Assembly (NCBI GenBank): GCA_964629655.1
Contig: CAZVQU010000002.1
Location: forward strand, 524,878-588,877
DNA length: 64,000 nucleotides
Direction: 5' to 3'
Origin: an uncultured Planctomycetia bacterium
GTDB lineage: Bacteria > Omnitrophota > Gorgyraeia > Duberdicusellales > 4484-171
Part shown: positions 7,675 through 63,100 of the stretch, piece after piece
Numbering within the stretch: the first letter of the stretch is position 1
How the letters are laid out: every line of letters starts with the position of its first letter
Position numbers and translations under genes: made by a program
Notes under the pieces: model-generated
Databases searched by the model: none
Seen by the model: only the letters and a program-made list of their open reading frames with translations
What the model was told of the DNA's origin: nothing

Positions 7675-7678
7675 TTGT

Positions 7679-8797: not shown

Positions 8798-8798
8798 C

Positions 8799-9945: not shown

Positions 9946-9948
9946 ATT

Positions 9949-27734: not shown

Positions 27735-28459
27735 TCAGTAATAATAATAAGCATAAAAGACCTTACTACTGAATGAGTCACTGCACGTGAAACATCAGTA
27801 GATGAAAAAGGCCTAAATCCCTCATAGCAAGAGATAAAAGCAATCACGCTGCCAAAACAAACACTCTTGGCAAGACCGCTTAAGATGTCTTTAAATTTTA
27901 AGGCATCAAGAGTCATTCTAAAATAAAGACCAGCCGGAATAGCAAATTTCGTTGACCCGATTACGTAGCCACCGACAATACCTAAAAAATCAGCATAGAT
28001 AATTAGGATTGGCATACAAACAAGCAAGGCGATGAATTTTGGAACTACCAAATAATCTATAGGCTCTACCCCTAATGCTTCTAAAGCATCCACCTGCTCG
28101 CTGATCTTCATTGATCCAATACCGGCGGTAATAGAAGCACCGCTTCTAGCAGCTACAATCAAAGCACCGATTACCGGACCTAATTCTCTTACCAAAGAAA
28201 GAGCTACCAAAGATGCTAGTTGGATCTCGGAACTAAGTTGTTGTAATTGATAGGCGGTTTGAAAAGCAATTATCATTCCGATGAAGAAAGCAATCAAGGA
28301 GACTAAGGGAAAACTATCAATGCCAATGAAAATTACCTCTCGAACTAAAGACCTGAGATCTCTTTTCTTGGTAAATAGCCACCAGAAGATATTCTTTATA
28401 AAAAAGCTAATGCTTCCTATATAGTGGAATAACTGTCCTAACCCGTTAATTAATCCCAT
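27695..28459 (-). CDS. mlaE: ABC transporter permease (MlaE-like)
   Basis: ~254 aa with 5-6 TM helices and MlaE-family conserved loops. Confidence 0.7.
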   Translation of the reverse strand: MGLINGLGQLFHYIGSISFFIKNIFWWLFTKKRDLRSLVREVIFIGIDSFPLVSLIAFFIGMIIAFQTAYQLQQLSSEIQLASLVALSLVRELGPVIGALIVAARSGASITAGIGSMKISEQVDALEALGVEPIDYLVVPKFIALLVCMPILIIYADFLGIVGGYVIGSTKFAIPAGLYFRMTLDALKFKDILSGLAKSVCFGSVIAFISCYEGFRPFSSTDVSRAVTHSVVRSFMLIIITDCILTALFYFTWV

Positions 28460-29343
28460 CAGAAATCCTTTCTCTTTTCAAATCTTAAAGTAGTTCCTTT
28501 TTCTTCCATCTTCAATCTCAAAAACTTATCATCTTTCCAATTATAACGCAGCTCGGTCTGAGGCCCTAACCCTTTTTCTCCTCCGTCAGTATCTACAAAG
28601 ACACCTAACTTCTCATCAATCTGCTTCTTAAGCCCTACACTTTCATTATCCCCGGAGAATAGCTGCCATTGATCAATAAAAACCTTCTGAGGATTATATT
28701 CTGCTCCCGGTAGTATATTAGAGAAATCCCGCAGATCTAATACCCCTTTGATTTCTACAACATTGCCATTTTTAAGGACGAGTTGGGAGTCGGTAATATT
28801 CAATACCGGCAACCTTCCTAAAAAGTCTATCCGTAAATAGGTAAATTCTTTACCCTTGTACTTGCCGCCACCTACCACCAAATAACCGCTGGTAAGAAAA
28901 CTGCTGATGCCACCCCAAGCCCTGACCTTTATATTTACCTCACCCTCTAGGAATGAGGAATTTTCCTTCCATCTGCCCTCAAGATCAAAATTAAGCTCAT
29001 TCCTGACTAAGTCAACCTGGCCGCTAGCGATGAATTGAGGTGAATAAATGTAAGGAATAACGGCAATGGCTTCGCTCAAAGCTAATCTCGCTCTTACCCA
29101 GGGTATACCTTTATCATTAAAGGTAAGATTGCTGCCGCCCACTTCCAATATCAAAGAACTATTATCTCTATCTAATCCAAAGATAAATTCGCCACTAACT
29201 TCACAACTCCCAAGATTAAAATCGACAAGCTTTACTTGATTTTTGATCAAGTCGATCTCGACTAAATCCTGACTAGCCGCAAAGGAATTGCCGCAAACCA
29301 AACAAAGAACTAACAGGGAGATGGCAAGAGACCCTTTCCTCAT
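28459..29343 (-). CDS. hypothetical exported protein, co-transcribed between clpC and mlaE
   Basis: Signal peptide MRKGSLAISLLVLCLVCGNSFAAS; no recognisable motif; 4-nt overlap with clpC and 1-nt overlap with mlaE. Confidence 0.4.
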   Translation of the reverse strand: MRKGSLAISLLVLCLVCGNSFAASQDLVEIDLIKNQVKLVDFNLGSCEVSGEFIFGLDRDNSSLILEVGGSNLTFNDKGIPWVRARLALSEAIAVIPYIYSPQFIASGQVDLVRNELNFDLEGRWKENSSFLEGEVNIKVRAWGGISSFLTSGYLVVGGGKYKGKEFTYLRIDFLGRLPVLNITDSQLVLKNGNVVEIKGVLDLRDFSNILPGAEYNPQKVFIDQWQLFSGDNESVGLKKQIDEKLGVFVDTDGGEKGLGPQTELRYNWKDDKFLRLKMEEKGTTLRFEKRKDF

Positions 29344-42126: not shown

Positions 42127-45100
42127 TCCTCTTCAAAAGTATCCCCGCTTTCCGAGTCAGGCCTAAAGAAAGGATCTGATTTTACCATTTTCGCTAGCAA
42201 GATCCACAATGATAACGGAAAACACAAAAGCCCTATCCAAGAATATACTTCGGGCACGGAAAAAGCCTGTAATAAAATATTATCTTGTGTTGTCTGAACA
42301 AATAGATCAATTTGACCTCCAATAAGCAATTCCGTAATAAGTATACTTAAGAGGGCAGCTGCAGGAAATATAGCTGCAGTTTCTAAAGCAATTCTTATTG
42401 CTCGCGTCTTTACGACATGCTTGATAGTTATGAAAATCGCTATGCCTAGAACAAATCCAACTGTTGCAATAATAATAGTCGTGCTACCTGAAGAACCAAA
42501 TTTAGATATCGTATGGTGTATATTTGAAATATGGAATGTCTGCCCTAAAGAAATATGAGGGTCGGTTAAAAGATAGTTTAAAGGAGCGTATCGCTCGGAG
42601 TGGAGGCTTTTTTCAATTCCAAGCAGACCTCCAGGAATCCACTGCACAAAAAGAGAAATAGCGCTCAACGGGAGAACAAAACCCAAAAATTGTACAATAC
42701 GACTTATATTACGCTTTAAACTTACAAATGATGCCATCGGAGAGGCGGCGGTGGCTTCATTCCCCACCGGCGAGCTGCCCCGTCGAGACTTTGTGCGTAC
42801 TACATCCGGGCTATTCGCTTTACGGACAGAATAAATCGCTGTTGGCGCAGACTCAGTGTTGTTTTCGATATTGGCCAGATATGTCCTTCCTCGAAATATT
42901 TCGGCAGTCACATCCATTTTTCCTTTTAACCTAAGAATATCTTCAGCTGCATCTAACGAATCCCCAAAGGCAGAATTCCAAACCAAGGCAAGGCCATCTG
43001 GCTTAAGAAGTGTTGGAAGACCCTGGGCAAACCGCCTCAAAATGGCCCCGTCATAATCATTATCCTCCCACTCCTCAAGGCTCTGACGGACTCTAGGACC
43101 GTCTGGGTAATACGTTGGCATATTCCAAATAATCCGATCAAATTTTTTATTGAAGACAGGCGTTCCCTCTGCAGAAATAATATTGTCATGTATCTTAGCT
43201 TCTACTTTAAAACCCGCAAGTCTACCAGACGCTCTTGTATTCGCAACTTCAAAAGGATTAATGCCGACGGCATAAATCTTTCGTGCTGTCCGCAATGAAA
43301 CAAACCAGGCGTCAAGGCCGTTGCCTGAACCACCGACTAAAACATCATGATCTTTGCGGACATCAAGTTTTTGGTTGACCGCCCTTAGATACTCCCAGTC
43401 GCAAAGAGAGTTTGATCCCGGATGATAGACAGTAGGAAAAACAGGGAGAATAGCATGATGCATATGGGCAGGATCTACTTCATTCAGAATAGACCCCCTT
43501 TCAACCTCTAAGCCGAATTTACTGGTATAAAATGGGTTGATATAAGGAAATCGTTCTTTCTTCTCAACCGTTACATAGATATACGGAACCCAGCGCGGCC
43601 GACGTTCAATCGCTCCGACAATCCCCCTCCGTTCTTCATAGGCAATTAAAGCTTTGTCTGTTTTCTGTATAACCTCAATAAAAGCATTCCATTTTGCCAC
43701 AGCCTTGGGATCACCCAACTGAGGCACGTCAAAATAGTATTCGCTGAAGTCCAGGTAGTGCGGTTTTCGCATCTTCTGATCAACCTGATAGCTGGCAGGG
43801 AGGACCGGATAAATGGCAATAAGATAGCCACGGTTGTCATACACAAGCTCATGATCTGTCGTATCAAAAAGCTCATAGGGTAGGATCTCTAATCCCTTCG
43901 GGGCTTTGTCTTTTTCTTTCAATGCAGGAACACGAATTCTATGAATTCTAAGACCATTCTCTTTTGTTGTGGAGATAAGCAGGGATTTATGAAGCTCCAA
44001 AACAGACAAGATATCCCAAGCAGGCATCCTTTTGACTTTTCCTGCAGCAGATTTATTCGAGCCTAAGGATGATCTCGATTGCTTCGACTCCACCGGCGAG
44101 CTGGACTGTACTTCCAATTTTGTTGGTTCTCTTTGAACATTGATTCTTGTGTCAAATTCTTCCGAAATCAGAAAAGTTTCATTAGCTGAAGAAACAATCA
44201 CAGATACTATTTTTTCAGTAATGTCGCTCATTTCTGGATGCTGCAGAACATTATAAATAATAGTTTCTATGCCCGGCCAGAAATCTTTCCCCACGAATTT
44301 CAAATCATGCCGTTTGAGCGCTGCTTCTAAGGTGTCAACGATAGTTTGTTTGCTTAGATCTAAAACCTCGATCAGAACTTCTTTTTTTAACTCTTCGAAT
44401 TTTTTTCTCAACTCTTCATCTTGACCTTTCGAAGCTATCAATTGTTCACTCAACCTTCTGCCGATAAATATGAACGGTGTAGTTTCTCTCGAAATAGATA
44501 AATCGCCCTTAACATAGAACCAATGCCACTCTTCTTGATCCGGTAAGCCATAAATATGCCTAGCAAGATCTTGGTTGGATAATGCATTAAATGCTGCCGT
44601 GGGTAGAATGACTATGTAGCCCCCGTTGTCAACATCTGTATAAACCTGAATATCTTCCGCCTCATTACCAATCCACATAGACTTATCATCTCCGGGAGGA
44701 GCAAACTTGCTACGCAAAATAGAAGTCATAAAATCATCTCCTTTAGCAAATCTTGCTAAAACGAGATTCTCTTCTGGGTCTTGACGAACATAGCAAGAAC
44801 CTGGGTAAGGCACGTTTGCAATTGGCTCCCTTCTTGTTCTAGACCGTATAAAATCAAATAATCTCATCGCTTCTTCTCTTGTAAGAGCAGGCTTTAACGC
44901 ATCTACAAACGCCTGCTCAAAAGCATCCCCGCCTTTGATATAGCTTAGGGAAGCTAACCTTTTTGCCGCATTCCATAACTCCTGTAATATTACCTTTTCT
45001 ACTCCCAACGGCGAGCTGGTTTGTAGACTGGTTGTTGTTGTATTTTTTTGCTGACCCAGCACCGAGCTGTCCCGGATTGAATCATCATTTTGAAGCCTTC

Positions 45101-48100
45101 TCTCAACCTCCGAGAATAACTTTCTGTAAAAACCATCACTACAAACCAATGTCTCTACATGTCCAAGACCACTCCCAATAAAGCTCATTTCAGCAGCTGC
45201 CGCAGGATACCAGTACTTTTTAACTATTTCGCTTGCTATGCATACTATAGTAGATTTTCCTATGCCATACCCTAAATGAGCAGTAGCGGTATCTACACTA
45301 ATAATAATCGTACTAAAATACATCCAGTATTTGAGAAATTTCTCTTGTCCATTTCTTAACATTGATCCCGAAGGTAAAAGAAACACCCAATCTCTGAACT
45401 CTCTGCCCAGATAACGATAGAAATCATCATAAGAATAAAATCTACCATCCAAACTCTCTATCGTTAAAGCAGTTTTCATTCCAAAGTTTTCTGCTAAAAA
45501 CCTTGCTATTCTTACACTACTTTTCCAATCCAGACTACGAGCCTTACTTTTTGACCTGCCATTAATAAAAATAAAATCTTCGCCTATTCCAATACCTATG
45601 TTTTCCAATTCTCTTCTGGCCACAATGCTTTCTTTGCTACCGTGATTAATAAATAAAGAATTGGAAGGATAGCCCATTAAGGATAACCCTAATTCATGAC
45701 CCAGATTGAAATCACGATAATACTGACAGTGCCTTATGCTTGCATTCTTACCACTCAATTCCCATATATGTCTATAATTTCTGGCAAGGCCTGGCGGAAG
45801 TAACAAATCCTCATGACTTAAAATAGCTAAATCAAATTCAGCCATCCCATTAATAGCTCTTATTGTATTATCCCAATTACATTTCCCGTTATCTTTTAAT
45901 ACAGGCAGAGGGATAAACATTTCTCCCTGTTTTTCCCAAATAAAGGGATTTCTGGTAACCATAGTTATCCTTGCATGAGGATACGCTACTAAAAACTGTG
46001 CTGACAAAGGTCCATTGAATATAATCTCATCACCGATATGTCTTTCGGGCATGAAGAATAGCACTTTATTTAATTCTCCATACCTTTCCCGCATAATTAC
46101 GCGTAATCGTTCAATACTCCTTCCGCTCATCACCGACGAGCTAGATTTTGTACTGCCTATCAATAATAATTTCGTGATTCCTAAGTCAGCTTTGACAACT
46201 TCTAGTTGGATCTTGGATAATCTAAACTTTTCATAAAAAATCTTACCCCAGAGCATCTGCTTCATAATATCTTGAGATAGTGGATGTTTAAGCAAAAGTG
46301 GGCATAAATTTTTTAGTAATTCCTCTATAAGTGTAGTCTGTGCAAGTCCAAGGCTAATCTGTCCTTTATCATCTTTCAAATAATTGTATTCATCCCTGTA
46401 AAAAGTTAACCACCTTCCTAATTTTATATCCTCTTGACTAAAATTTGGTGAAAGCTTAGTGAATTCTTCTGCTAAGGTAATTATCGATCTAATCTCTTCA
46501 ATGAATGCTTTAACTTTAATATTAAAAGGGAGTTCTTCAAACCGTTCGCCTATCCGTAAACATATAGCTGAAAGCATGCCTCTTTCTTTTAAAAGGATAA
46601 AATTAACCAGGTCGATCCATAAAGCACCCTCGTCATCAACATGACCAACCATAAATACCCCTTTTCTTCTTTCGCCTGTCTGCATATCTTTCAAGAAAAA
46701 GATCCAGCGAGTACAAATCCGTTCATCTTGCCATTCCCGTAAAATATTTTTCTTATGTCTATTGATTTGTTCTTTCGATAACTCTCTTTCTTTGTTTGTT
46801 TCTAAATCAATTTCCTCTAACTTAGTATGAACAACCATTTCATCGCTTAGCTCTTCTAAGCTCGTAGAAAATTCCAATTGAAATTTCTTACCATCTTTTG
46901 CAGTAATGATCTCTTTATCCATCCCTCTAACAGCCATAAGAATAGTTTCGGTACACTTTGGTAAAGTTAACTGCATAAGACAGTCGATAATACTTATTTT
47001 TGAACGGATTTCTTGCTCAGGATAGATGCTATATCGGCCCACCATTTGTTCAGGCGATAATCTTGCCTCTCGATCTGCCTCTATCCCATTTAGCTCTTTT
47101 TGCCAAATTTGTCTACAATCTTCTAAAAATTTATTTACCTCTCTTCCATCATTCACTTTAAGAAAGTTTTCCAATAGCCAATCAAATGAATCCTGGAATA
47201 AACTGAGTGTCTCTAACTCCTGCTCAATAAACCTCGCTACGAAAACAACTCTGCTTTCATTCCATATTACTTCTCTCAATTTTGTTTTCATGATCCCTAT
47301 TTCTTTATCAGTGATATGTCCCTCAATGGCACTGACTAACCGTTTGTCTAGACATCCTAGGGGATTTAGAAAACGTACATATTCTGCAACAATATCGGAA
47401 TCTATCCTAACCTGAACGCTAAATAATGTGGGAACATTGATATGCACTAATGGCGACCGGTTTTGTAAATCCGCTATCAATTGTCTCATTTCAATTTCAG
47501 TCATAGATGCCTCTTCTAAATCCTCTACTAAATTAATACAATCTTCTTGCGCAGGAAGTAGAAGCACCTTTTGAGCCTCACTGCTATCTTGCAATGCTTC
47601 AGGTGTAACTTCATCAATCAGCCCCCACTCTACGTATTTATCTAATTGCTTAACGCTTAATGTACGTGGTAAAGTCAAATTTTCTATAATTTTACTTCGC
47701 AGTGTCTTTTTGGCTTTTTGTTCACTAACTTCTGCCACCGACGAGCTGGTTTTCGCAGATTTACACACAGGTAAATCGCAGCGAACGGACTTTCCGGATA
47801 AATTATTAATCGCTTCTAAATATTCATTAAGTAAGTCTCCATTTTGAGAATCATTATCGCGCCAAACAGAAAGTTGTTCCTTAGTAAAAGAGTGTATGGA
47901 TTTTCTTTCAATATCCACAGATACTGCTTCTTTTAATATAGGGGCATTCTTCCCTACAACCGAAATACCTCCTAAGACTTCTTGAGTTAATCCATAATCT
48001 TTGCTAAACTTCTCAGCAAAACTACTCCTAATCTGCCTAAACAATTTGGCAATATTCCTAGTGAATTCTCCACATAAAACAAACATAGCATCAATGTCTG

Positions 48101-51100
48101 AATCTATAGCACATGTAGTTTTAACAGTTGAACCGAACATAAAAGACTTGTTCTTATCAACCGAGGTAGGAACCATCTGTTCAAATTTTCTCAAAATTGC
48201 AATCACTGCAATAACATTGCGTAAAACCTCTCTGCTTTGGCCCCATTGTAGTTTTGTACCCCACCGATAGCCCCCCTTATACTGTATAGTGTAATAAGTT
48301 GCCGGGAACTGATACAATGACGAGAGTAATCTGGCTTCTAGCCCAAAATCAAAAGTTTCTGAAAGACTTCTTCCTTTTACCTTAACCGATGAGCTGGAAA
48401 GGTCTCCAACAATTCTAGCTGATGGTTGTTGCTCCATCCGCAGATCATTAATGCGCTGACTCTTTGAGGACTCATCCGATGGCAGGGTTATTGTAAATGT
48501 TGTTCCTCTATCCTTTTGACTGGCAACATCTATTGCCCCGCCATGTTTTTCAATAATACCTTGCACAATCGACAACCCTAAGCCGGTTCCTTTATGTTTT
48601 TTTGTGGTAAAGAACTTTTGAAACAACCTTTTCTGCACTGACTTTTCGATCCCGCTACCATTATCGCTAAAGGTTATTCTGATGCTTGCCTCTATTTTTT
48701 TAACCGCAATGGATATTTCTGGATTATTATTGCCTTCCAAGGCATCAATAGCATTGCTGATAAGATTTAAGAAAATAGAAAATATATCATTTCTGACAGA
48801 ATATATCCATATATTAGAAGCGATATTAATCTCTACTTGCATATTATCTTCTTTCACTTTATGCCCAAACAACTTGGCTATGGTATTAATCTCCTCCATT
48901 AAATTAAAAGATTCCTTTTTAGGAGCTTTGCCGTTAGCACAGCGAATTAGATCAGCAAGTATCCTCTTTATCCTGTACAACCTACTTACCGTAACACGAA
49001 CTAACTCATCGCAACATTTAATAATATCTTTTCCGTCTTCTTCATCGCAGGTCATTTGCGCTAATTGCATTGTTTCTGACATGGATGATAAAGCATTCTT
49101 AATATCATGAGCTGCGGTTAGCGCAGGATCTCTTATGACAACGGGAATCCCTTTTCCTTTAGTAGTAAGCCATTCTTGAACAATTTTATTGGTGTCGCTT
49201 ACAGCAGCAGTTATATGACTAAAGTGAGCTTCTGCCCCAACAAGAGTAATCTGGCCTGCCTCTATATCCTTTTCTAAAGCGCTTATAGGCCTGCCTATTC
49301 TCATCGTATGCCTCTTTAGCATCTTTACTGAGCTAAGCACCCACTCTTTAGCCACCTTTGACGAGCTAACCCCAACAGCTGAAGAAATCGAAGAACTACC
49401 CCCAGCCGCTATCCTTATTGCTTTACTTATAATCCTATTGGCCCCATCTATATCCTCTGTGGCTTTCTGTACAGCGCTAGAGCTTTGTCTTGAATCGTGC
49501 CCACGTCTTTTATCAACTAAAGATACATACGAGATGGTATGCCCTTCGGGAGGATAGGGATGCGGAAAGCCTAATTTTCCAAAAGCAACACCTTCCTTGA
49601 TGTCCCTCTGCCAATATAGCTGATCCTCTGGCAACCCCAAGAATTCCTCTTCAAACTCATAGATAAAACTCGTAGCCGCACTAACATAATAGTCATATAG
49701 CCACTGCGGGGTATAGCGTAGATTAGCAATGCCAAAAAGCTTATCTCTGAGCCTGGTCAAGACTCGTAAATTCTGAGGATATTTATCGGAAATCTGGCTG
49801 TAGTCAAAAAGGACAACTTCACCCATTAGGTTACGGCCGTAGTTAAACAGGTAGAAATCACTGTTAAAAACCCCTCTGCGCCACTCTGCTAAAATCGCTT
49901 CGAAGTACGCATCAATAAGCCTTTCGCCTTCTTCTGGAGAAACTAGGTATAAAAGACCTGCGCTCGTTTCGTCGGCATCGCCCAATACCTCAACAAATTC
50001 TTGGATTACCCTATTCCCGTGAATAAATATCTTGGCGCCGACACCATCCAGACGCTCTCGAGCAATTCTCAATTCATTCCTCGCCCAGATAGCAATGGAC
50101 TCGCCATCCATAAGCCACTTCTCCACAAGACAAGTACCACTGACCAAAAAGACCCTGTTAAAAACTGAGCCGCTATTGCTTATCAACAGCCTGTTTTTAC
50201 GGCGTAGCGCCCTCTTCAGTAAAATCCGCTCAATCCCCCTTGCACTGTTTTCTGCTTGTACCGTTGAGCTGGACCTTACTTGTGTCTTGCATTTCTCCAA
50301 ATCATCAAGTTGACCGAATGTGTTATCCCGACGAACAGACTGTATACGCTTTAGATGAAAAATTACGTATCTTGTTACTATCCACAGGAAAAGTCTTGGT
50401 AGAAACGGGAGATAATAATAGTTTGTTTTTAACACTCCTTCATCTTTGTACATAAATAGTGGTGCATGCCAATCCTCAAAATCGTCAATTTCAATATCAA
50501 ATCCTTGTTTCTTAATTTGGTTTCTTAGAAAATCTACTTTTGGCCCAACAGCAAGCTGGTATGACGGTGCGTCTGTATATCCTTTTGCATTAGTCAGCAT
50601 TTTGGCGACTTTTAAAACTAACGCTATGGATAAAGAAAACCCTGATAAAACCAAACCAGGTATAAAACCGATAAACCAGACGTTTTCAAATTTGGCGGCG
50701 GCAAAAGCCATTAAGGAAGCAACGGATAATCCAATTAAAAAATAGTACAGTCCGCTTCTGAACAAAACCCTTGAGGATAGTAAATCCCTAGGTAATTCGG
50801 CCAAATCTTTCACCGGCGAGGCGGCAGTAACAGAAGTCTCAAGGGGTATTAGACTGGCGCGCTTAAGCGCTTCTAAATAGACGCCATGATATTCGGGCGA
50901 ATCAAAATCAAATGAACAATTATCTTTGCTGCTTGTCCATTTATAAAGCTGGCTCCCCAGAGGGTCTGAATATTGCTGAGTACTAAAACCAAGTATTTTT
51001 CCATCAGGCACTATATCTAAATGCGAAAATTCTGAAGCATTATCTTTGTATGGACGAATAAGCAACTCGCCATTGCTTTTAAGCTTTGTGGAAAGGACTT

Positions 51101-54100
51101 TTAGCTTTAAGGAATTGATAATCGGCCTATTTATCTTAGAACCAGAACCAATAACTACTATTTTATCAAAAGAGTTATTTGGAAAATGTTCAAACATATC
51201 ATTTACATCGGCCCGAATAGTTACTACATTCTTATTTTCCAAAGCTCTAGCCATTTTCTGTGTAGGTAATATTCCTCTTTCAAATTGTTCTGCAAACTGA
51301 TAATAAGGCGCGCTATAGATATCGCTGATAATAAAGGCCTTATTGGGATGTGCTTTTGCCAGTACCGCTTCAAAACAAGTTTCTCCACTTGCAACAAATA
51401 TAATCAGTTCATCCATTCGCTGGAGCAGTAGTGAAGCAGGATCTAGAAAATCCACCACTTTTGAAATTGCTCCAGCATCGTTACCTTGCTGCTCTAAATA
51501 TGCCTTTGTCCTAACAATAGGACTAGCCCCGCCATTTGCCGGGCTTAACGAACCCGGCGAGCTGGCCCCTCTGATACTCCCTACGCCATCAAAAGTAACT
51601 GCCCCGCTGACAAACTCATCGTTGAGATAACCCTCAAATCTCCAGGCTAACTCATTTTGAATAGTCCAGTCGTCAGCATTAGGATCATTGATAAGGCCGG
51701 AAATGGTTCGAGGACAAATGCTCTCTCTCCTGATAACATCCTTTTTGCCAGATGGTCGGTGAAACATCCTATTTTCTGTGCCTCCCCGAATCGCCGGAGA
51801 AACAGCCCCTTCTGGAATATTGACTTTACGAGGAACCTTCTTTAGTGTCATTATTACCAACTTTTCTGACCTTAGCTTTTCTACTGATACATGGTTATCA
51901 ATTCTCCAGTGTTTAGACCTATGATGGCCTCTCCTTTTTCGTTCTCTCCTACCCATAACCCTAGAAAGCTCGAATTTTTTAATACTATCTATTGCTAATG
52001 TTCTAGAATCGTTCAAGCTAGCAAGTACGGTTTTGATCTGACGTCCAGTTATATAAATGACAGAAAGAGCATTTATATTGTCAGGATTAAGGTACATATG
52101 TACTTCTTTGATAAATCTTTCTAGCGTGCAGTATTCTGGATCGTAAAAAGCATGGTCCAGGCTGCTAATTGAATCGGATTTCGGTTCATTCCAATGCTCA
52201 AACCAAGGAGGAGAGAATGTAATCTTATCGAAAACTATACCTGGGCTTATTTTTTCGAATAAATCTGATTCTATTACATCGGACACTAATCCAAACTCTC
52301 TATAATTTTCCCTGGCCAAATTGACTGCTTCCGGATTAATATCTACACCGAGTACATAAGATCGCCCTAATTGATAAGCCTTTATTCCTATGATTCCACT
52401 GCCTGTACCCATATCTAAAACTCTATCACCGGGCCCAATAATATTCTCCAACTCCCAGGCGAGTAATTCACCCATCTGGACATTATGGTAGTGCGGATCC
52501 AAGACTGCTGGACTTACCCATAGTCGTCCCCCGATAACGGGGATATATTTTCTCTTCCAGCCGTTGAGAGAATCAACCAGCGAGCTAGAACTAGTAATTT
52601 TATCTTTGATCACATTTTCCAAGCGTGTTCTCCAATTAGCAGCCTGGATATTGACAAAGTAAGGTAGTTCTCCAAAAACCTTCTGATCTTTATTGTCTCC
52701 AATAATAATGGTATCACCTTGCAATGATAGTTCTTTATCTCTTGCGATAAATACATCTGATAACGTTTGACCGCTAAAGTAGTCCTGGCTATCCAATTCA
52801 AAGTAATTTGCCATTATAACTTCAAATTGCCCTTGAGTTAAAATACCCTCTTCTTGTATTCTTTCAAGGTACGCCTCAATAACTTCTCCAACACCAACAG
52901 AACATATACCGAAAACGCAGTCAGGATTATGCTCGAGAATTATTCGCACAGCCTCATGGAACTCCGGATTCGGTTTAATGCGAATGACTATCTCATCAAG
53001 ATGTATTTCTCTTAAAAGCATCCTGTAAAACGTAGCTTTATTTCCTGATGTTGGGAATCTGTTAGAGTAAAGCCTCAAAGCAGCCAACTTTACAGTATCA
53101 GCTGCAAGCATGATAGAATAATAGATTTTACCTATTGGGCTTGCTTCCTCTATCCTCTCAAACCGCAGCGCAAAAAATGCTCCTGTAAAAGCTCTAGAAA
53201 TATAGGCCATTGTTTGATCGAAATCAACGACGACGCCCTTAAAGCCACGAAAGCGCTCCTTAACTAACTTTCTTGTAAGCGTTCCTTTCCTAGTACACAC
53301 CGATGAGCTGGAATAAGATTGAACGGAAATTCTTTCAGATTCACTTAGTATCTGCCGCAATGAATTCTTAATATTCCTCGCTTCATCTTTATGCCCCCTG
53401 CGCCAAGGAATGATATTTCTATATGAACCCGGCCTATAAGAGATTATTTTAGGCTTATACCGTAAAACACGCTCCAAAGAAGCATTAAGCGTAGCCTGGC
53501 CCTGATCGCTCCAAAACTTGGCTAAGGAATGCTCAAGCGCAGATAAGCTTAAACCGCTTTCCGCCTTGTGCTTGCTGACAATGGCTTTCGTAATATATTG
53601 GATAATTTTCGCTACTTCATAAATCTCACGGATTCTCGCAAAACCATATTCAATATGCATATACTCTTGGCCAGAGATGGAAACGTTTTTCGCCCTATTT
53701 TTACGGATTGAAGCTACTTTGACCCCATTTTGTATGCCATCATTACTGATAAAAGCTATTACTGCGGCTAACATTAATTTCGATGCCTCTTTCTTAACAC
53801 CCCATTCATGAAATCGATCCCAATCTTTTCTAGGTATTCCTAAATTAAACTGTACTGAGTGAGTATCGCTATTGGGAATATTTGTATACTCGAGAACAGT
53901 TTTAGCTAATAAATCGATTTGGGTTCTAAAACTCCAGGATGGACGAAAATTAAATTCTAAATATCCAAAAGGATCTCTATAGAAGGGTAATACGTCAACT
54001 CTCTCCCTAATGGTCTCATCAGAAATCCTGGACAATATATCTTCTTTTGTTTTATACTTTCTGCGTAATTCAAGTTCTCCGCCAATTGGCATTCCCAGCC

Positions 54101-57100
54101 TCGCTTCCCTTTGTTCGCACTCTCTCACCACTCTATGGTCTATACCAAAACGTATTGCATCTAATGCGCCTGGCAACATTTCAGCAGGTAACAATCTAAT
54201 TGAAGACGAACTGGTAAACAACGCATCAAGAACTTTTAAATATTCCTGAAGCAACAACTTGTCCGATGGTTGATTCATGAGCCATGCATTTAGCATTCTT
54301 CTTGAGAAAGGATATATCATTGCTTTATGTGCGTATCTGAAGTTTATATCGGTTCTCCAGCACTCCTGGGAATACATGATATGGCGCAGACGCTTAAAAT
54401 TTAGTCCACAGGCCCCAAACCGATGGGCAAAGCTCATCTTGATTTCATCCATAAGCCCACTTACCATATCCCTCTCCTCTACTCCAAGTTCTCTGTTAAC
54501 TGCAAGCATGGCGTCCACATCGGATTCTAAATCGCTTGCTTGATGAATTGTAGACCCTAAGATAAACGAACTATTCTTATCGAATAACCCCGGAATGATA
54601 TCATCTGTCGCGCGTAAAACAGCTATTAAAGCAATTATGTTACGCAATGATTCTCGGCAGTACGGTTCTTGTTTGTCAATACCTCTTCTCCCTCTTTTTG
54701 AATCTTGAACCCACTCTATCAAATAAATTTCTCTCTTTTTCCCTGCGTAGCCTATACTCACCGCATTTCGCTTAAGATTATATAAAGCAGTTAACAATTT
54801 ATACTCCAGTTTAAAATACTCATATAAGTCCGGGATAATAAAATTACCTAATCCGCTATTGCCAACCGCCACCGACGAGCTGGAGGATTCTTTATCTTCC
54901 ATAAGTCCTGCTTTATCTTTAGCACAAAATTCCAATAAAATTTCTTTATCTCTGTCTCGTACCGGCGAGCTGGTCTGGTTGTATCTTGAAACATCCGGCA
55001 GACTGTCATGATTGCGGATAGTATAAGTTAAATATCCCCATCTTTCCGGATAATGGCTAATGTAGTGGGAGGTAACCTTTTCAACCTCAAGCCAAGAAAA
55101 TCGTTTAAGATAGGGAGAAATTACCTTATCAAAAAAGCTGAGCGCGTTATCGTCAGCACCGTCATGATCGAAGAATCCACCGAGTAACAACTGACCGCCG
55201 GGAAAATTAGCCAAAAGATCAATAACCTTCTCATTAACCTCCTTGAGGTAAGTCGGACCCAGGTTAGCAAGAATAATCGGCTCATGGATGTCGAACTTTC
55301 CAGCCTCAAAGATTAAACGCGAAAATTCTTTTACTAAATCTAGCTGTATTAACCTGAACGTATGCCCAAGCTGGATACCATTAATGCCAATGCTACGACC
55401 AATATTTACTTTCATTTTTTCAATAGCAAGAACTTTCTCCGCTCCTAGTTTTCTAGCCATTATTTCATGTGTTGCCAGTTGACCATATCCTACCCCTATT
55501 ACGGCTCTACCGGTAAAGTCCATACGCATCATGGCCCTTGCCATACTCAAGCTGGTACCGTGATAATCCCGTCCGCCAAATATGCCCTGCCCGACTTCGC
55601 TATAGTTAACCTCTGTTACAATCAGTAAATGTTTTTTTGCCCTATCTCTTACTTTGAAAGGTAATTCCTTTTTGTGTTGCTCGCGAATGATAAACACTGG
55701 GCCTATCTGAATAACGTTCCACCAGTGAAGCCTTCTTTTAATGGCTCTCTGCAGTACTCGGAATTCTTCTGAGTTAATATCGGCTCCGACTTTCCGCACC
55801 GACGAGCTGGAACTAAAGGATAAGGTTTGTAAGCTTTCTATTAAAGGATTTCCTATATGGTTTTGAGGATTGTCAAGGTAGCGGTAGGTTACATATATAT
55901 AGGTAAACGGTCCGGCTCTGATTTCTATAGTATTGTCTATTTTATCTAAAGTTATTACTATATTTTTGTTTAGGCGAATCCTAAACAGCTTCTGCTTGAG
56001 GACAGTCCTTAACCACCCTTTAAACTGGCCGACTAACTTTAAAAAAAGGGCAGGCGGAAAGACCCCACCAGCCACGGAAGAGGTAACCTTTCCTTGAACC
56101 TGCCCTTTTATACCATTATACCTTTTTAAATTACCGAAAAAGAGAATTTTATTAAATATTTTAAGTAGCGTCCTAGATTGAAATCTAGCTCCAACCGGTG
56201 AGCTACTCTTTGTCTGTGGTTTTTTAACTTTTTTAATTATGCACTTGCGATATGAATGTAACATCTGTTTAAATGTCCTAATTAGAAGCTGGAAATCCTG
56301 ATTAATTTCTTCTTTTTGCCCATTTATATTCTGAACAGCTAGAGCATCTACGCTAAAAAAGTCTGTTCCCTGAACAAAGTCTAAACTTATAAGCCATACT
56401 GAGCCTGCATATAGAATAATCCGATTAGCTATGTACTCTCCTGCTAGTTTTACAAACACTATAATGCAAAGAATTGAAGTTGATAGGATTTCTTTTCTCA
56501 TCGTTTCCATTGAATCAGCAGGCTTATTAGCGTTTGGTTTTTCCACCGGTGAGCTGGAAAGGCCTGAACTGGGAAATAAAACTTCTAATGGCTTAACCTC
56601 GCCCCTTACTTCCTGAATAACTGGCCCCTTATACCCGCGATTAATCAAACTCCCTATATATTTAAGTAATGGTATGGTTCCCTCTGGATGATTGATAGGC
56701 AAGTGGTCATCCATTATGCCCATATTTTGATTGATATGGGTACTGCGCAGCGGTATGCCCGATTTTAGTATGGCCTCTTCTAAAGGACGAGCTTTGTCCA
56801 AGGAGAGATTTGCGTGGGCGATATCAAAAGTAATGCCAAAATACTCTCTCTCCTCAAGGCTCAATTGCTCATAAATCCTTAGAGCTGCAGCTACAAATTC
56901 ATCGTTAGTATGATAAACGCAGCCTTTCAGAAAACTATTGATATCTGAGACAGGATATGGATTATAGCGGCTGTTTTCAAGACCAACAGTAATTTGATTT
57001 CGCGTTGCCTGTTGGATAAAATGGACTATTCCGTCTGTGTCAGAAGGATTGAAAAGATGCAGGGTAATAAGACCCATGCCCAACTCCTTCGCTACCCTTA

Positions 57101-60100
57101 AGGTTTGGTCAAAGTGATTTTCATCCTTTAAAGGATCGGGAAAACGAACAGTATTGTTTTTATCCTCAAATTCTAGCCAAGGAGCGTGAACTATTAATTC
57201 CATAGTATTGTCTTTTGCAACATCTCTTATCTTCCTAAGATCTGAATCCTGCAATCCGTTAGGATCAATCACATATACACCATATTGCCAAAGCCGCTTG
57301 CCACTAGAGTCAAGATAAATCTCAACAGCGCCGAATCCTCTCTCCCTTACTTCCTTAATGGTATCTACAATATGTTGAGTTGAATCGTATTCGTGACAAG
57401 ACTTCTTCCAAGGCCAGAACAGTTGAGATGCACCTAAGATGAGTCCGGAGTCTTTCAGCTTAGCTAAAGTTATCGAGCTACCAGAGGCAGTTTTGTCCAC
57501 CGACAGTGGTCTGAAATGAGAGTGAATTTTTTCATCAGCCATGTAGACAAATAAGGCTGAGCTTTCCGGACGTGCAGACAAATACTTTAAATGTTTTTTA
57601 ACCACTTCATGGTCTTTTCGAAAGCAAACAGCTGACAATATTTTATCCAAAAATACTTCTGATCGCTCTGCCCCAAGTTTATTGAGAATCACGCATTCTG
57701 CAACAATTTGTAAAAACCGCTTCAGTTGCTCTAAATCAACTGTCTGGACTATTAACTCTGTTAACAACTCAAGGTCATCTCTCCTTGGACAATTAAACCA
57801 ATATTGTACTACATCGGTAATCGCTACCGGATCATGTTGCTGGCTTCTCTCTAAGATAGATAAGAACCGTTCATCCTCCCTAGCTTGCTCAAGTACAGCA
57901 AATAAATCAGGATGCAGCGTGAAGTTGATGCTACGCAGATATTGAAAGAAGTATATGAACGCTTCTTCTACCTGTGTAATACCACGCTGCACAAAGTGAT
58001 AAGGCCGGGAAGAAGCGAGGCACGATTCAAGCCAATCAGCAGTACTTATAATCTGCTCAAATAGATCTTCGGCTTTTGGTATATGGTGATTGGAAATCTT
58101 CCCCATGACCTCAGTTAACTGCTCAGGCGATAATTCTAAGCTGTGCTGGGCAACTATTTCCTGGACAATTTCTACTGAATATATCGGGTGGGCCTTGCGT
58201 AAATACTGCAATTGCTGCTTGGGAAGTTCACTCGGAGAATTAATCCAGCAAAGCAAGGTATTTGTTGTTTTACCCAAGTCATGAAATAACGCGCACACCC
58301 TTAAGACCTCTCTTTTAGTGCTAGGGAGAAAAAGTTGCTTTGCTAAGTAATCGGCTAAATCTGCTGTGGTTTGAACATGTAACCAAATATGATACGCACC
58401 GATAGGTAGCAATTCCTGTATAATTTTTTTTGCTCTTTCAAAACGACCCAATTCTGTAATGGACGAGCTGGAGAGAATGGCAGCATGCTGAACATCAGAT
58501 GCTGTACATTCCCTTTGTCTGCTCTTTACTTTTGCCGGTATCTTATTAATCCTGGCTTTGTTCAGCTGACCCTTTTTAATCATTATATATACGGTGTTGG
58601 CTGTTCCGCTAATTGACGAGGAAAATTTTTGCTTTTGTCTCACATAAACACGCCAGCCATAGTTCGATTTGGAAAGCGAAAAATCACTAGACGCCTGCGA
58701 AGCACCGGGCTGCCAGTCAGTTTCCAAATCTTTCCTTATATATTCTCTTATAAAATACTCCCACAACCTCATCTCTTCATTATGGATCTCATCTTTTGTT
58801 GTAAATAAACCAGCCTTGCCATTAAGAAAACTATCAACGTTTCTGTACTCACCTTCATCGATGACCAGAAAACCATCGGCTTTTATATTCTTGGCAATAC
58901 GGGAAAGAAAAATTTTATACCTCTTTAACATCACAAATGATGCTTTCTGATAATAAACGTCGATTTTCTTATCTAAACTCATCTTCTCCATATCTTCCGG
59001 TTTATAGGTAATCGAATAGGTTTTGGAAGCTTGGCCAAAAAATGTCCAATCAAAACGTATAGTTACTGAACCATCTAAGTTGTCAATTACTTTGATATTC
59101 TCAGCACCATCGCTTTTAAACCTATTGACTTCCATACTCTCCAATTCCGCAGCTATTTTTAGCTCAATTTCACGCATTCCGCCCATTATGCCGCCTCCGA
59201 AACCACTATGGAATTTGCCTTGTTTATATTCGTTCTTTATCCCTTGATTGTGGTGAAGCCTATGAGATTGGCTATCTTCATCATATAGTAAACACCATAA
59301 ACGATATGCATTCACACGATTTTGTTCGTAAAAATCTACTTGCCTTGCTCCTGTTGCCAAAATAAAGGTAGACCAATCAGCACCTGCGCATCCATAACCT
59401 CCAATAATATCCATAAACTCAAGGTTAACTATTTTTCTTATGCTTGTATAATAGCCAACCAAGAAAAGGTTTAACAGTCCATTTGCTATGGGCCTATGAT
59501 CAAGACCTAGTTCTCTAGCAATCTCTACTTGAGTACCTATATCCTTAACCTCAATAGTCTCTAATATATACCGAAGATACTGAAGTTCTTTTGAAAACTT
59601 ATCTGAGAGCGGTGAAGAACCAGAAAAAAGCAATTTTCCAGTTACCGTAATCTCCCGATTAACTTCTTTCTTTAGACGGTGTAATTCAAATTCAAGGGAA
59701 TTCGGAGACAAATAAAACACTGTTTTTAAACGAGATCTGGCAGTAATAAGTACCCCGTAACTCTCTTCAAATACTTTCTTCTTCCTAAAAATAACTCCTA
59801 AAGATAAAAGATTGCCCACAAAAATACGTTCAGCAGCAACTATCGTATCTATATCTATATTTGGATACTTGGCTAAAGCATTGTAAGTTACTGAATCAAT
59901 CTTATCGTTTAAAAGCTCCGCGTTAATTTCAGGTATGTCGTTAACGTCCAGTATGAAACGCCTGGTTACCATAGTAACAACAAGCCACTTAGTGATTGCC
60001 AACAGATAGTCTCCACGCTGAGAATCTAGCTCTAATATGCCTGATACTTCCCGGTTATAATCTTCGTCGTAGCCGTTTTCTATATATGCTTCTAAAAGAA

Positions 60101-63100
60101 TGACTTTCTCTAAAAGTAAGAATGCATTAGCGGAAAAACAATCTACCTCTCTGTTGACAGCAGAAAGGACACTCCTCCACTGGGCCTTATCAAATCCGGC
60201 TGTAGAAAATATATGCCTTATGCCGCCCTCGGATTTCCGACGGCCCAACATTTCTAAAATAAGCTCTCCTGCCTGTTCATATCTACCGGTTTCGTAGTAA
60301 AAATTAAAGTAGGCTATAATTTCTCGGTAAACACTGATGATCCTTGCCGCATTCCTTGAATCGACTCCGTCCTTTAAATCTGCAATTAGTTTAGGCAACC
60401 TATCTTTTTTTAAAAAATCACAAATCATACTGGATGATGATTCTTCCCAAGAAAGCTCCTCTTTAAATCTATCAGCTACACGAAATGCCCATTGAGGCCT
60501 TGTACTAATAATAGACCTTACCAATTTGTTGATCCTGCTTGCAGGAAGAGCAACATAAAAACCCTTAATCAAAATGAATTTTAATGCCTTTAATAGCCTA
60601 TTATTTGCGACTATGTATGGTTTTAAGTTTGGCGAAGATGACCCTGATATTCTATTTTTTAAACTATTGTCTAAAACTAAATCGTATTCTGGCGTGAAGG
60701 CATATATTTGATGCAAACCAAGAAGATCTTCTACAGGATCCCCTCTTTCTATTAAATTAATCTCTCTTGTCTTCTGATCAGCCCATATCTTAATCTTTAG
60801 ATCTGCTGAAAAACCATGCTCTTTGATGTATAAGGCTTTATACCCTTCAAGAATTAAAACCTCCACATTTCTATCGTTCATAAATACTCTCAAATCATCC
60901 CGTAGAGTATCCCAATCTATCATGCTCCGCAAATCTCCTTCGAGACGATAATCATCAATAGGCACTACCTGCAAATTTACATATCCGGAAAAAATATGTT
61001 TACAAAAGGTAGTTTTTCCAGCGGCAATATCGCCGTCAACGACTACTAAAATACTGCCCTCTGATTCAATTTTATTACTGTGGCTTTTTATTAATGCATA
61101 TATTTTGTTCTTTGCTTCCTTGGCCGGCACTTTTCGGCCAAAGAACATAGGAATACTGGAAGATGATCTCTTTTTATTTAAAACAGCTGCTTTGTCAAAA
61201 ATCCTATCTACATCAAGAGATTCAAATATTTTCCATAAGTCAGCGGCCGTAAATTGTCCTCCCGAAGCTACGAAAGTCCCGATATCGGGTAAATCTTCTC
61301 GATAATAGCCATGCTCTTTAGATAAAAACTCCGTAGGAACAAATATTCTCTTGTATTCATTACCCTTCCTTAAAATATAAGAATCGTCAAATTTAGAAAT
61401 CATACGCTTTTCAGCAACAAGTATCAAGTCTGCTTCTTTAGCTACGGAAGGAGAGCAGAATTTTCTTTGTCTCCCGTAAAGAAAATCTTCCATAATTCTA
61501 CTGTAAAAACCTTTGGCAATTAAGGATTGCCTCATCTCTTCAATGACAAGAAAGTGAGTTTTGCGGTCAATAGGCGCCGGCTGTCTTGTCCCGCAGGAAT
61601 CTATCTCGATCTCTCTGTCCGAAACCTTAAGCCTAAGATAATATTCCAATAAAGCACTCCTGAACATATTCGATGTACATACGGTAAGTATAGACACAGG
61701 CAAAGATACTTCATTTTTTAACATAGACGAGCTGGAGTGAGCTTTGATTGCCTCAGATACCACTTGGCTGAATACATCGGAATGGCTATTCCTGATAAGC
61801 GTGTGTAAAAAATCATGCTCTATTAATTCTGTTTTCCTACCTAACAACGCATCGAAAATATTTGAAAGGATACTCCTAGCATATTCGCTATCTAATGTTT
61901 GATCATCCAAACGAGATATCTTATGCAGGAAGGCTTTTAACTTATCTAAATTCTCCCTATTGATATGGCAATATAACTTCTCTAATAATATAATTCTCTC
62001 TTTTTCTTCGGCTGAAATAATTTCGCCCACAATACTAAGAATATCTTCTGCCTCATCAAGAACCTTTCCTCCCTTTGAATCTATTAATGCTAAGAGCTGT
62101 TCAATCTCAAAAAGCTCTTTATATTCTCCAGCTCTGGATAAAATTCTCCTGGCTTCTTCTTCATCCGGGACATCTTTTAACAACAGCTCCTTAAGCGCTT
62201 CATAATAAAACCATGCGGCGGTAATGTTATTTTTTAAATCCTCATCGGCCTCCTCTTCTGCCAAATTAAACTGTTCTTCTGCCTCTTTATAGAATTTAAG
62301 ATCTGCATAGAGACAAGCAAGTTGATAGTGTAACTTTGCCCTTACAAGAGGGCTCTTCTCCTGGACTATCCTGCGCAAATACTCATCCTTCATTGTGGCA
62401 TAGACCACCTCCACAATCTTTCTTTCGTAAGGCCGAGAAACATAATATGGCATAGTAACTGTCCTGGCATCATCAGATATCGATAGTTCGTGTAAAAGCG
62501 GAAGCCAATTATGCCCATTATCTTCAGTTGAACCAAAGGGTACTGTGGTAAAAGAAATATTCTCATGGATACCGGAAAGGTCTGCTGTGATAAGCCTCAG
62601 GTTTACCTCGCCCTCTGGATTTAGGGGTATATTGCACTTTTCTGCTTCTTGCTGCTCTTTTCTGGTAAGCTTTCTTGCCTCAGGATCATCTGCCTGCAAT
62701 GGATATTCCTGGTCTTCTTTACACTTCTGATGCGAGATGATGCGTGCTGAAAAATCCACCTCTCCATTTGCCTGCCGAACAGCGATTACTCCTTCAGCCG
62801 TACCACCTGCTCCGCCGCAGCCATCCAACTCATTAGCCAAGATAGCATTGACCGGCATCTGGTCGCCATCCCCGATTAAAGAAATCCAGCCGCCACGCCG
62901 GTTGTTGATTTTAAGCTCACCGGTGGTACTTTTAAGTACTTTCTCAAGCCTTAAGGAACCTTTTCTACCCACTCTAGCAAACCCCTCTGCCTCAGTAAAA
63001 AATTCTTTATATTTATCTTCAATATCTTCATATCTAATTTGTAGAGTCTTTAGTGCTTCGTTAATTTCTTTTCGGTGTCTGCCCCTCATAAGCTCAGTCC

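Follow-up and report, generated by a model that had tools for sequence, protein, structure and literature searches.

A lineage-specific junction motif with a recurrent DNA spelling at the module boundaries of a giant Omnitrophota gene

Why should the linkers between unrelated protein modules agree not only in their amino acids but also at the synonymous positions of their codons? The question is raised by a gene in a 64,000-nt stretch of DNA (hereafter the window; positions 524,878 to 588,877 of contig CAZVQU010000002.1, assembly GCA_964629655.1) from an uncultured bacterium placed in the Omnitrophota. On the minus strand of the window, at 42123-63947, one uninterrupted open reading frame (ORF) of 21,825 nt with zero stop codons encodes a giant protein of 7,274 amino acids (aa), a mosaic of ~27 unrelated enzyme-like and membrane modules. 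The unrelated modules are separated by ~30 junctions with the peptide form [ST]SS[SP][VILM], about half of which use a single DNA consensus, TCC AGC TCG YCG GTG (Table 1). We report here that this motif sits at module boundaries and that whole modules have been shuffled, that the breakpoint of one recent rearrangement lies next to a junction, and that junction positions are common across lineages while junction sequences are lineage-specific. The giant ORFs in which a fixed spelling of this kind was found numbered four of the 11 sampled.

An initial annotation of the window, made from the sequence alone, had placed a nucleotide-identical GC-rich 14-mer at 16 or more sites between 42766 and 58472. 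The motif is real, lies at the positions then given and goes far beyond chance, but strict identity is rarer than was claimed: the exact 14-mer CCAGCTCGYCGGTG occurs four times (at 44091, 47736, 54870 and 55797) and the exact 12-mer core AGCTCGYCGGTG six times, and one copy (61722) falls outside the range. With up to two mismatches allowed, 15 matches were found in the window against 0.19 expected from shuffles, none of 100 shuffles reaching 15, and 14 of the 15 lay on the minus strand within the giant ORF, all in one reading frame, as the annotation had held for its own copies. At the same threshold there were no copies in the 42.2 kb of the window outside the giant gene, compared with 14 in the 21.8 kb inside it, so the motif does not recur at similar density elsewhere in the window. 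The shorter core CCAGCTC has 13 coding-strand copies, every one of them at a junction, and six copies elsewhere in the window, a number within shuffle expectation; in an independent repeat search, too, the leading direct-repeat families of the gene were those of the motif. Successive junctions are 30 to ~2,050 nt apart and the intervening segments are unrelated, which bears out the earlier statement that this irregularly spaced series is neither a CRISPR array nor a tandem repeat. At the protein level, SSSS occurs 13 times in the giant protein against 0.27 expected and SSSSV five times against 0.017. In all, 32 junction-like sites were curated in the giant protein; since a loose form of the peptide pattern is met once per 220 aa there and once per 985 aa in 38 neighbouring proteins, a handful of these 32 sites will be chance matches.

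Conservation among the window junctions is confined to ~15 nt. The 45 nt to each side of the junction cores showed 27.3% and 27.8% pairwise identity, compared with 27.0 ± 0.7% for random in-frame sequence, and self-BLAST found no internal paralogues in the giant protein, indicating that the gene did not grow by tandem duplication. Recent duplication of modules, which the annotation had offered as one origin of the identical strings, is excluded by the lack of internal paralogues, and the flanks, at the random level of identity, are not the remains of a long tandem duplication; the two observations together imply that the junctions are not a decayed duplication. An inverted copy of the string, AGCTCACCGGTG, was also observed on the plus strand at 62914-62925, within the first module of the giant gene; its 12 nt are identical to part of the junction at 56544-56557, for a rough chance expectation of ~0.01. 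An antisense ORF (62737-63219) that frames this inverted copy as SSPV was rejected as a candidate gene, its translation being of low complexity and apparently spurious.

The choice of codons at the junctions was tested position by position against the giant gene's own usage. TCC was used in 9 of 16 cases (background 0.12), AGC in 15 of 24 (0.20), TCG in 13 of 33 and 9 of 17 at its two positions (0.10), CCG in 9 of 12 (0.22) and GTG in 10 of 15 (0.145), and each of these preferences has a P of approximately 1e-4 to 1e-5. This position-specific bias supports the view, already put forward in the annotation, that amino-acid selection alone is insufficient for the uniform spelling in the giant gene; the SSSS run of the sensor kinase in the window, with which the junctions had been compared, is spelled AGT TCT TCT TCT, as noted at the time. 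The spelling is bimodal, with 15 of the 32 curated sites differing from TCCAGCTCGYCGGTG by at most three mismatches and 17 by at least five. The divergent class takes in nearly all junctions of the first 1,800 residues, where codons such as TCA, TCT and AGT are used, and a gradient along the gene was observed, the consensus string being present at 2 of 9 junctions in the first 1,829 residues (58458-63947) and at most of the later ones. A general habit of pairing Ser and Pro codons was considered and rejected, as TCG CCG spells 1 of 24 Ser-Pro pairs in neighbouring genes and 5 of 12 at junctions.

That the junctions are module boundaries can be seen from the modules on either side of them. The Pfam domains of the giant protein fall between junctions; those at or above threshold are a GlpX-like fructose-bisphosphatase (FBPase), HD, AP_endonuc_2 (a xylose-isomerase-like TIM barrel), several methyltransferases and HATPase_c, and weak, sub-threshold matches were obtained to LMWPc (low-molecular-weight protein tyrosine phosphatase-like, LMW-PTP-like), NTP_transf_2 (nucleotidyltransferase-like), an AceK-like kinase and a TsaE-type P-loop protein. 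Many modules have no Pfam match, and by Pfam and self-BLAST no enzyme family dominates the protein by copy number. When the first 1,173 aa were used in an exhaustive search without profiles, 41 proteins were found; the strongest matches each cover one junction-bounded module (query residues 69-734, 737-924 or 926-1101), and the matched modules occupy unrelated positions in other very large proteins (3,278 to 7,953 aa). BLAST alignments show, in each of the two proteins compared, homology blocks that begin 5-17 residues past a junction motif and in many cases stop shortly before the following one. The relatives thus found hold single junction-bounded modules in different positions and orders, and one of them, P0033, unites homologues of window modules that lie ~4,500 aa apart. 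The kinase-like module ends in the same conserved motif in every lineage, with the lineage's own junction following a few residues later, which argues that the junction positions are homologous and old, with sequences that agree within each genome and differ from one genome to another. Two protein word-index searches, with aa 2467-3549 and with the module shared with locus L001 (described below), gave no matches, giant proteins apparently being hard to reach by this type of search.

Structural predictions are in keeping with this layout. An alignment-backed AlphaFold model resolved the kinase-like module alone, with a predicted local distance difference test score (pLDDT) of 80-94, and the low-confidence stretches that flank it hold the SSSSI and SSSPN junctions; a single-sequence model of aa 742-1180 was uninformative (pLDDT 33). 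A search of the Protein Data Bank (PDB) by sequence with the first module gave just weak matches to class II FBPase. The best-conserved module of the protein, aa 6619-7077 (window 42717-44093), is 56% identical to its counterpart in L001 and has invariant blocks that include PRWVPYIY, LPVFPTVYHPGS, DRIIWNMPTYYP and LEEWEDNDYDG, as well as a Rossmann-like GxGxG stretch read by eye; it had no Pfam match at the thresholds used and no sequence match in the PDB. Six transmembrane-like segments were predicted by a crude hydropathy scan at aa 4400-4441 and 7083-7252; a trait looked for in Omnitrophota-type giants is anchoring in the membrane by such helices in a protein that lacks a signal peptide.

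Relatives of the giant gene are referred to here by locus handles (L001 to L010). The sole genome match for the C-terminal part of the window protein was L001, deposited as 'MAG: Candidatus Omnitrophota bacterium', where 21.3 kb of the locus form one open frame, of which 7,118 aa were compared. Apart from the module at 56% identity, the two proteins share one weak methyltransferase match (33% identity), and the modules flanking these are unrelated; the two matching segments are adjacent in L001 and lie ~2,800 aa apart in the window protein. The L001 protein, which likewise has no internal paralogues, carries a junction of its own, [AS][AS]SP[VLI], mostly spelled GCC GCC TCG CCG GTN/CTG, with TCG at 25 of 36 positions (background 9%, P = 2e-18) and GCC at 14 of 16 (24%). 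Seven pairs of L001 junctions stand 17-18 residues apart, three of them with nearly the same peptide. Two of these double junctions are 100% identical over ~66 nt between unrelated flanks, the identity being bounded by the two junction cores (~11276-11341 and ~19844-19909, at aa 3759 and 6615; the element, CAGTTCGCCGCTGAAAGAAATAGTTGGAGCGACGGTGGTGACGCGAGGCGCCGCCTCGCCGGTTT, encodes SSPLKEIVGATVVTRGAASPV). Such identity between unrelated modules shows that a copying process acts on junctions. A third, diverged copy of the element lies near aa 1607, and a GCGAGG/CCTCGC stem can be made out by eye within it. Paired junctions occur in the window also, with 10, 10, 13, 28, 30 or 51 residues between the sites. 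The annotation had taken the two widest of these as scars of deleted modules, and the short segments do exist (30 aa, residues 2996-3025; 51 aa, residues 1779-1829), but their reading as scars is doubtful because L001 uses paired junctions regularly; the segments are at least as likely to reflect an arrangement in double junctions as a deletion.

Other lineages have junctions of other composition. In L003 (JGI Ga0209726_10000374, 2-11389; P0038), a gene of 48% GC encoding 3,795 aa, 21 junctions take the form G[AS]RL[AST]; G[AS]RLA occurs 18 times against ~0.03 expected, and its spelling, CC GGC [G/T]CG CGG [C/T]TG GCG, is nearly invariant, with CGG at 18 of 21 junctions although it is an uncommon Arg codon in this gene (11%). 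The junction of L005 (P0035) is AGAEE, found six times against 0.01 expected and spelled GCC GGC GCG GAG GAR. L004 (GCA_016214325.1, JACROS010000038.1, 24-21001), on a contig of 36% GC with three consecutive large ORFs, keeps the peptide [SA]SS[AS][VIL] at at least 25 sites with variable, AT-rich codons. The same peptide with free codons shows that selection acts on the peptide itself and that the fixed spelling is an extra, lineage-restricted layer. The L004 ORFs encode 2,234, 3,278 and at least 1,459 aa, each with SSS-type junctions and the first two overlapping by 23 nt, and may represent a split giant gene or a frameshift. In L008 (GCA_041643015.1, 1001-14458; P0024), a glycosyltransferase-rich protein of 4,485 aa, the junction-like peptides are KP.SPDM.KEKE (three copies) and a variant, EKPESPP, with variable spelling; two of these four use the heptamer TCG CCG G, as junctions of the window and L001 do, which alone is not significant. 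A metagenome scan with the alignment of the L001-shared module returned a single distant locus, L002 (Ga0180431_10000002, ~670-11980), whose 3,770-aa ORF contains a 34%-identical homologue of that module and in which no junction-like peptide and no repeated oligomer were found. A scan of viral contigs for TCCAGCTCGYCGGTG gave, among the 90 of 120 matches listed, one copy on each contig, a chance-like pattern in GC-rich phage DNA.

The rearrangement mentioned at the outset is that of L007 (JGI Ga0302068_109860, 1-903), a short contig of a close relative, which is 86% identical to the window in nucleotide sequence over 496 nt and shows no similarity thereafter. Within its kinase-like module a 1-nt indel creates a TAG codon, and the junction is followed by a short unrelated tail and a stop; these features may mark a pseudogene, an error of assembly or an architecture that truly differs.

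Compared across lineages, an unbiased count of 9-mers was headed by the junction string in the window, L001, L003 and L005, and not in L002, L004a-c, L006, L008 or L010. GC content at third codon positions (GC3) of the junctions was above expectation in the window (0.59 observed, 0.39 expected), L001 (0.68, 0.43) and L003 (0.86, 0.52) and below it in L004 (0.17, 0.27). Among the codons of the window, the least used for Ser is TCG (6-10%) and for Val GTG (12-14%). A cluster of rare codons was nevertheless rejected as a description of the junctions on grounds of average rarity, their codons being no rarer than expected: the mean synonymous frequency, used and expected, was 0.23 and 0.25 in the window, 0.22 and 0.24 in L001, and 0.22 and 0.23 in L003.

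The account towards which we lean, while stopping short of calling it probable, is that the uniform spelling reflects concerted evolution of the junctions, tied to exchange of modules at or beside them. The motif would be the inter-module linker of a multi-enzyme giant protein of the Omnitrophota type, with two layers of conservation superimposed. In one layer, a run of small residues followed by an aliphatic residue between independently folding modules would be kept by selection on the protein, as a flexible spacer and possibly also as a recognition or processing site. In the other, about half of the junctions share one string of 12-15 nt in the window lineage. Giant genes would acquire, lose and swap whole modules, with breakpoints falling at junctions or close beside them, and each such event, or short-tract copying between junctions, would re-install the current string of the lineage; junctions without recent exchange would drift at synonymous sites and retain the peptide. 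Recombination or copying at the junctions could in this way keep their synonymous sites uniform.

Several observations weigh against this account of concerted evolution. For recombination or gene conversion dependent on RecA, a tract of 12-15 nt is short, and RecA-type conversion on 15 nt without flanking homology would be unusual; outside the core, the window junctions share no homology. The 42 kb downstream of the giant gene yielded no recombinase, integrase or transposase. The breakpoint of L007 lies 7-8 codons past a freely spelled GSSSP junction, thus beside a Ser run rather than within a junction of consensus spelling. Third codon positions in the consensus class are approximately as conserved as first and second positions, which fits direct selection on the string, although the comparison is weak because the class was itself picked by nucleotide similarity. 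At two orthologous junctions, 5 of 8 codons are identical compared with a 48% baseline (P = 0.31), an underpowered comparison. Finally, the heptamer TCGCCGG occurs in frame five times in the window and ten times in L001, against ~0.4 and 0.8 for 7-mers of the same composition; being common to both genes despite a shared module that is only 56% identical, it looks more like long-term nucleotide constraint than repeated resetting.

Alternatively, the string could be a nucleic-acid signal read by a lineage-specific trans-acting factor, the linker peptide then being largely its translation; the core site of a site-specific or short-homology recombinase, an RNA-processing or DNA-modification site and a transcription or translation control element are the candidates. 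The heptamer shared in frame by the window and L001 fits such a signal, as do the synonymous positions held in three AT-rich to moderate-GC lineages, where junction GC3 exceeds expectation, and the use of one specific codon rather than any codon ending in G or C (CCG nine times and CCC never; GTG ten times and GTC never). The consensus strings of the three lineages are alike in register (NCC RGC KCG CSG STG) while their peptides differ radically (SSPV and GSRL), which is suggestive only, the codons being GC-rich, and the strings contain short GC-rich palindromes (AGCT, CCGG, GGCGCC, GCGCGC). The signal would, however, have to be dispensable, since no fixed string accompanies the junction peptides or giant ORFs of L004, L006, L008 and L010, and about half of the window's own junctions lack it. 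Local RNA structure was rejected, the minimum free energy of folding and the accessibility at junctions being the same as in random and GC-matched controls; a scan of the window with Rfam was negative, the gene shows no enrichment in promoter-like or terminator-like sites, and no recombinase or nuclease gene is nearby. We therefore regard a nucleic-acid signal as unlikely. A related and still more speculative proposal, to which we attach little credence, is that giant ORFs are in-frame cassette arrays whose lineage-specific core of 12-15 nt is used by a dedicated process of short-homology or site-specific recombination, or read as an RNA or DNA signal, with modules inserted, deleted and exchanged in frame; string and trans-acting partner would co-evolve, giving SSSPV, AASPV, GARLA and AGAEE. 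The spelling might instead be selected for translation kinetics, slowly decoded G-ending codons of an AT-rich genome (TCG, CCG and GTG, and CGG in L003) pausing the ribosome at each domain boundary so that the finished module folds first. Boundaries between domains are where rare-codon pauses have been proposed in work on co-translational folding, and the fixed codons do include the rarest Ser and Val codons of the window and, in L003, CGG. Against this, average rarity is not elevated (0.22-0.23 compared with 0.23-0.25), AGC, GCC and GGC are common codons and yet fixed, L004 and the N-terminal junctions of the window use the commonest codons, TCT and TCA, and a pause predicts any rare codons rather than one ordered string, which makes this explanation distinctly improbable.

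An explanation that concerns the peptide layer alone, and is compatible with concerted evolution of the spelling, is that the junction is a protease site of a polyprotein, the nucleotide uniformity being incidental. One short peptide at essentially every module boundary, with its own version in each lineage, recalls viral polyproteins and their co-evolving proteases, and L004 conserves the peptide without the nucleotides; cleavage of Omnitrophota giants has already been proposed (bioRxiv 10.1101/2023.11.21.568195). Pfam found no peptidase domain in the giant protein, where the many unannotated modules could still hide one, and among the 38 neighbours solely a weak Lon_C match (E = 8e-5) in a RadA-like protein. 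Proteolysis leaves the uniformity of synonymous sites unexplained, and a Ser-rich run is also typical of a passive flexible linker; we consider a protease site possible, though less likely than not. There remain chance, codon bias, a genome-wide skew of the uptake-like or Chi-like kind and decayed tandem duplication. The most that can be said for these is that TCY-AGY-TCN spells three of five SSS runs in ordinary genes of the window, so part of TCC AGC TC may be a general habit in writing Ser runs. The excess of matches in a single frame, their absence from the rest of the window, the lack of a codon-pair bias, the unrelated flanks and modules, and the appearance of the same phenomenon with their own strings in independent metagenome-assembled genomes (MAGs) effectively refute this group of explanations within the window.

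Table 1. Junction sites of the giant ORF in order along the protein, with positions in the window
Site	Peptide and codons	Position	Strand	Remarks
Two N-terminal junction-like sites	NSSSL, TSSPM	63771-63848	-	Free spelling; module-1 homologues begin just after, query residues 56-72
After aa 741	SSSSM, TCC AGC TCG TCT ATG	61722-61736	-	2 mismatches; GlpX-like / LMW-PTP-like boundary
After aa 931	SSSSI, TCA TCT TCC AGT ATT	61152-61166	-	Free spelling; LMW-PTP-like / kinase-like boundary; low-confidence in model
aa 1103-1106	GSSSPN, TCA TCT TCG CCA AAC	60627-60641	-	Free spelling; L007 homology stops 7-8 codons downstream, ~60610
After aa 1173	SSSSM, TCA TCA TCC AGT ATG	60426-60440	-	Free spelling
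After aa 1446	GSSPL, GGT TCT TCA CCG CTC	59607-59621	-	Free spelling
After aa 1778	FSSSI, TTT TCC TCG TCA ATT	58611-58625	-	Free spelling; next junction 51 aa downstream
After aa 1829	SSSSI, TCC AGC TCG TCC ATT	58458-58472	-	3 mismatches
After aa 2467	SSSPV, TCC AGC TCA CCG GTG	56544-56558	-	1 mismatch
After aa 2584	SSSPV, AGT AGC TCA CCG GTT	56193-56207	-	5 mismatches
After aa 2716	SSSSV, TCC AGC TCG TCG GTG	55797-55811	-	Exact consensus
After aa 2995	TSSPV, ACC AGC TCG CCG GTA	54960-54974	-	2 mismatches
After aa 3025	SSSSV, TCC AGC TCG TCG GTG	54870-54884	-	Exact consensus; paired with 54960, 30 aa
After aa 3249	SSSSI, AGT TCG TCT TCA ATT	54198-54212	-	Free spelling
After aa 3549	SSSSV, TCC AGC TCA TCG GTG	53298-53312	-	1 mismatch
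After aa 3789	SSSSL, AGT TCT AGC TCG CTG	52578-52592	-	AGC TCG core shifted one codon
Near aa 4130	GASSPG, GCC AGC TCG CCG GGT	51555-51569	-	Consensus shifted one codon; paired with ASPI 51516-51530
After aa 4378	AASPV, GCC GCC TCG CCG GTG	50811-50825	-	Identical to L001 consensus
After aa 4562	SSSTV, TCC AGC TCA ACG GTA	50259-50273	-	3 mismatches
Three junction-like sites, aa 4822-4863	SSSAV, GSSSI, VSSSK	49356-49484	-	Free or partly consensus spelling
After aa 5187	SSSSV, TCC AGC TCA TCG GTT	48384-48398	-	2 mismatches
After aa 5403	TSSSV, ACC AGC TCG TCG GTG	47736-47750	-	1 mismatch
After aa 5938	SSSSV, TCT AGC TCG TCG GTG	46131-46145	-	1 mismatch
After aa 6313	TSSPL, ACC AGC TCG CCG TTG	45006-45020	-	2 mismatches
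After aa 6618	SSSPV, TCC AGC TCG CCG GTG	44091-44105	-	Exact consensus; N-terminal edge of L001-shared module
After aa 7060	GSSPV, GGC AGC TCG CCG GTG	42765-42779	-	2 mismatches; C-terminal edge of L001-shared module; double junction, first half
Double junction, second half (partner of 42765)	AASPM, GCC GCC TCT CCG ATG	42735-42749	-	L001-type spelling

The surroundings of the giant gene are those of an ordinary bacterial chromosome. The window reaches 53 nt upstream of the start of the gene; downstream of it, at window 1-41328, lie 38 neighbouring ORFs of at least 150 aa, 34 of them oriented like the giant gene. This neighbourhood consists of common housekeeping genes, including those of Opp-type and Mla transporters, LptFG, several aminoacyl-tRNA synthetases, McsB-like and ClpC-like proteins, RadA, IspDF and TsaBE. 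An ORF at 23659-24648 encodes a PIN-domain protein, another at 28459-29343 has no Pfam match, and GC skew is uniformly negative across 1-41328. No rRNA or tRNA genes were found when the window was scanned with Rfam and for tRNAs, Rfam giving no match at all, and an exact look-up of one neighbouring protein matched no record.

Several known systems share features with this locus. An integron-like cassette array differs in that no recombinase gene is encoded in the 42 kb downstream of the gene and the window sites have no inverted-repeat structure. Uptake signal and DNA uptake sequences (USS/DUS), Chi and KOPS are likewise lineage-specific oligomers of 10-14 nt kept through wobble positions and tolerated in weakly constrained protein segments, but they are spread genome-wide at ~1 per kb, whereas the 14 coding-strand copies of the window motif lie within the gene and none in the 42 kb outside it. 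Rare-codon clusters share the location between domains and the rarity of TCG, GTG and CGG; in the window average rarity is not raised, and one ordered string is conserved. Rickettsia palindromic elements are short in-frame nucleotide repeats at structurally tolerant coding positions, and the identical 66-nt element of L001 is reminiscent of them; the window motif, in contrast, has 12-15 nt, is not palindromic, shows no structure signal and is found in one gene, always at domain boundaries. Elements of more than 50 nt, often palindromic, by which in-frame selfish repeats are recognised, were not found in the window, whereas two copies in L001 share 66 nt. Viral polyproteins resemble the window protein in having one short peptide at every boundary of unrelated units, varying by lineage, but the window gene is a bacterial chromosomal gene amid housekeeping genes for which no protease was found, and to our knowledge viral cleavage sites are not normally conserved at synonymous positions. 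The MARTX toxins of Vibrio are mosaic arrays of effector domains released by an internal cysteine protease domain (CPD). They too combine unrelated modules in one giant protein, with a repertoire that varies by strain through recombination and short sites between domains. No CPD or other protease domain and no RTX repeats were detected in the window protein, and we know of no uniform synonymous spelling at MARTX inter-domain sites.

The nearest likeness is to the giant ORFs of the Omnitrophota themselves, which, like the window, have one very long ORF with many Pfam families (methyltransferase, HATPase_c, HD) of which none dominates, transmembrane-like segments, poor conservation between genomes and a best relative in an Omnitrophota MAG. 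Giant ORFs are characteristic of the Omnitrophota and of related ultra-small bacteria, possibly predators or parasites, and how they are organised is largely obscure. They are described as common and poorly conserved (PMC10066038), and the present gene exceeds the 20 kb by which single giant ORFs are recognised in that study, while its product of 7,274 aa is below the 10,000-aa cut-off used in another (bioRxiv 10.64898/2026.06.07.730766). Cleavage has been proposed for Omnitrophota giant proteins, with the cleavage points stated to be unknown, and this lack of known cleavage points blocks module-wise analysis (bioRxiv 10.1101/2023.11.21.568195). The words 'linker', 'junction', 'cleavage' and 'motif' are absent from the text of bioRxiv 10.64898/2026.06.07.730766, and 'linker' from bioRxiv 10.1101/2023.11.21.568195 and PMC10066038, in a search that covered openly available texts and not subscription-only literature such as the original Velamenicoccus description; a recurrent lineage-specific junction with a fixed DNA spelling thus appears to be undescribed in these three studies. 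Such a junction offers a simple rule for cutting giant proteins into natural modules for structure prediction and annotation, and a concrete candidate processing site that can be checked in existing metaproteomes. As homology between giant proteins starts and stops close to junctions, these may also be a record of how the genes were assembled. Uniformity at the nucleotide level is unusual for a linker and, if it reflects a mechanism rather than history, would represent a new way of building modular proteins. In domain content and architecture the window gene matches, among Omnitrophota long proteins, the 'multi-enzyme metabolic cluster' class and 'Pfam module 1' (bioRxiv 10.64898/2026.06.07.730766), as well as the Archaeovorin-type giants (bioRxiv 10.1101/2023.11.21.568195).

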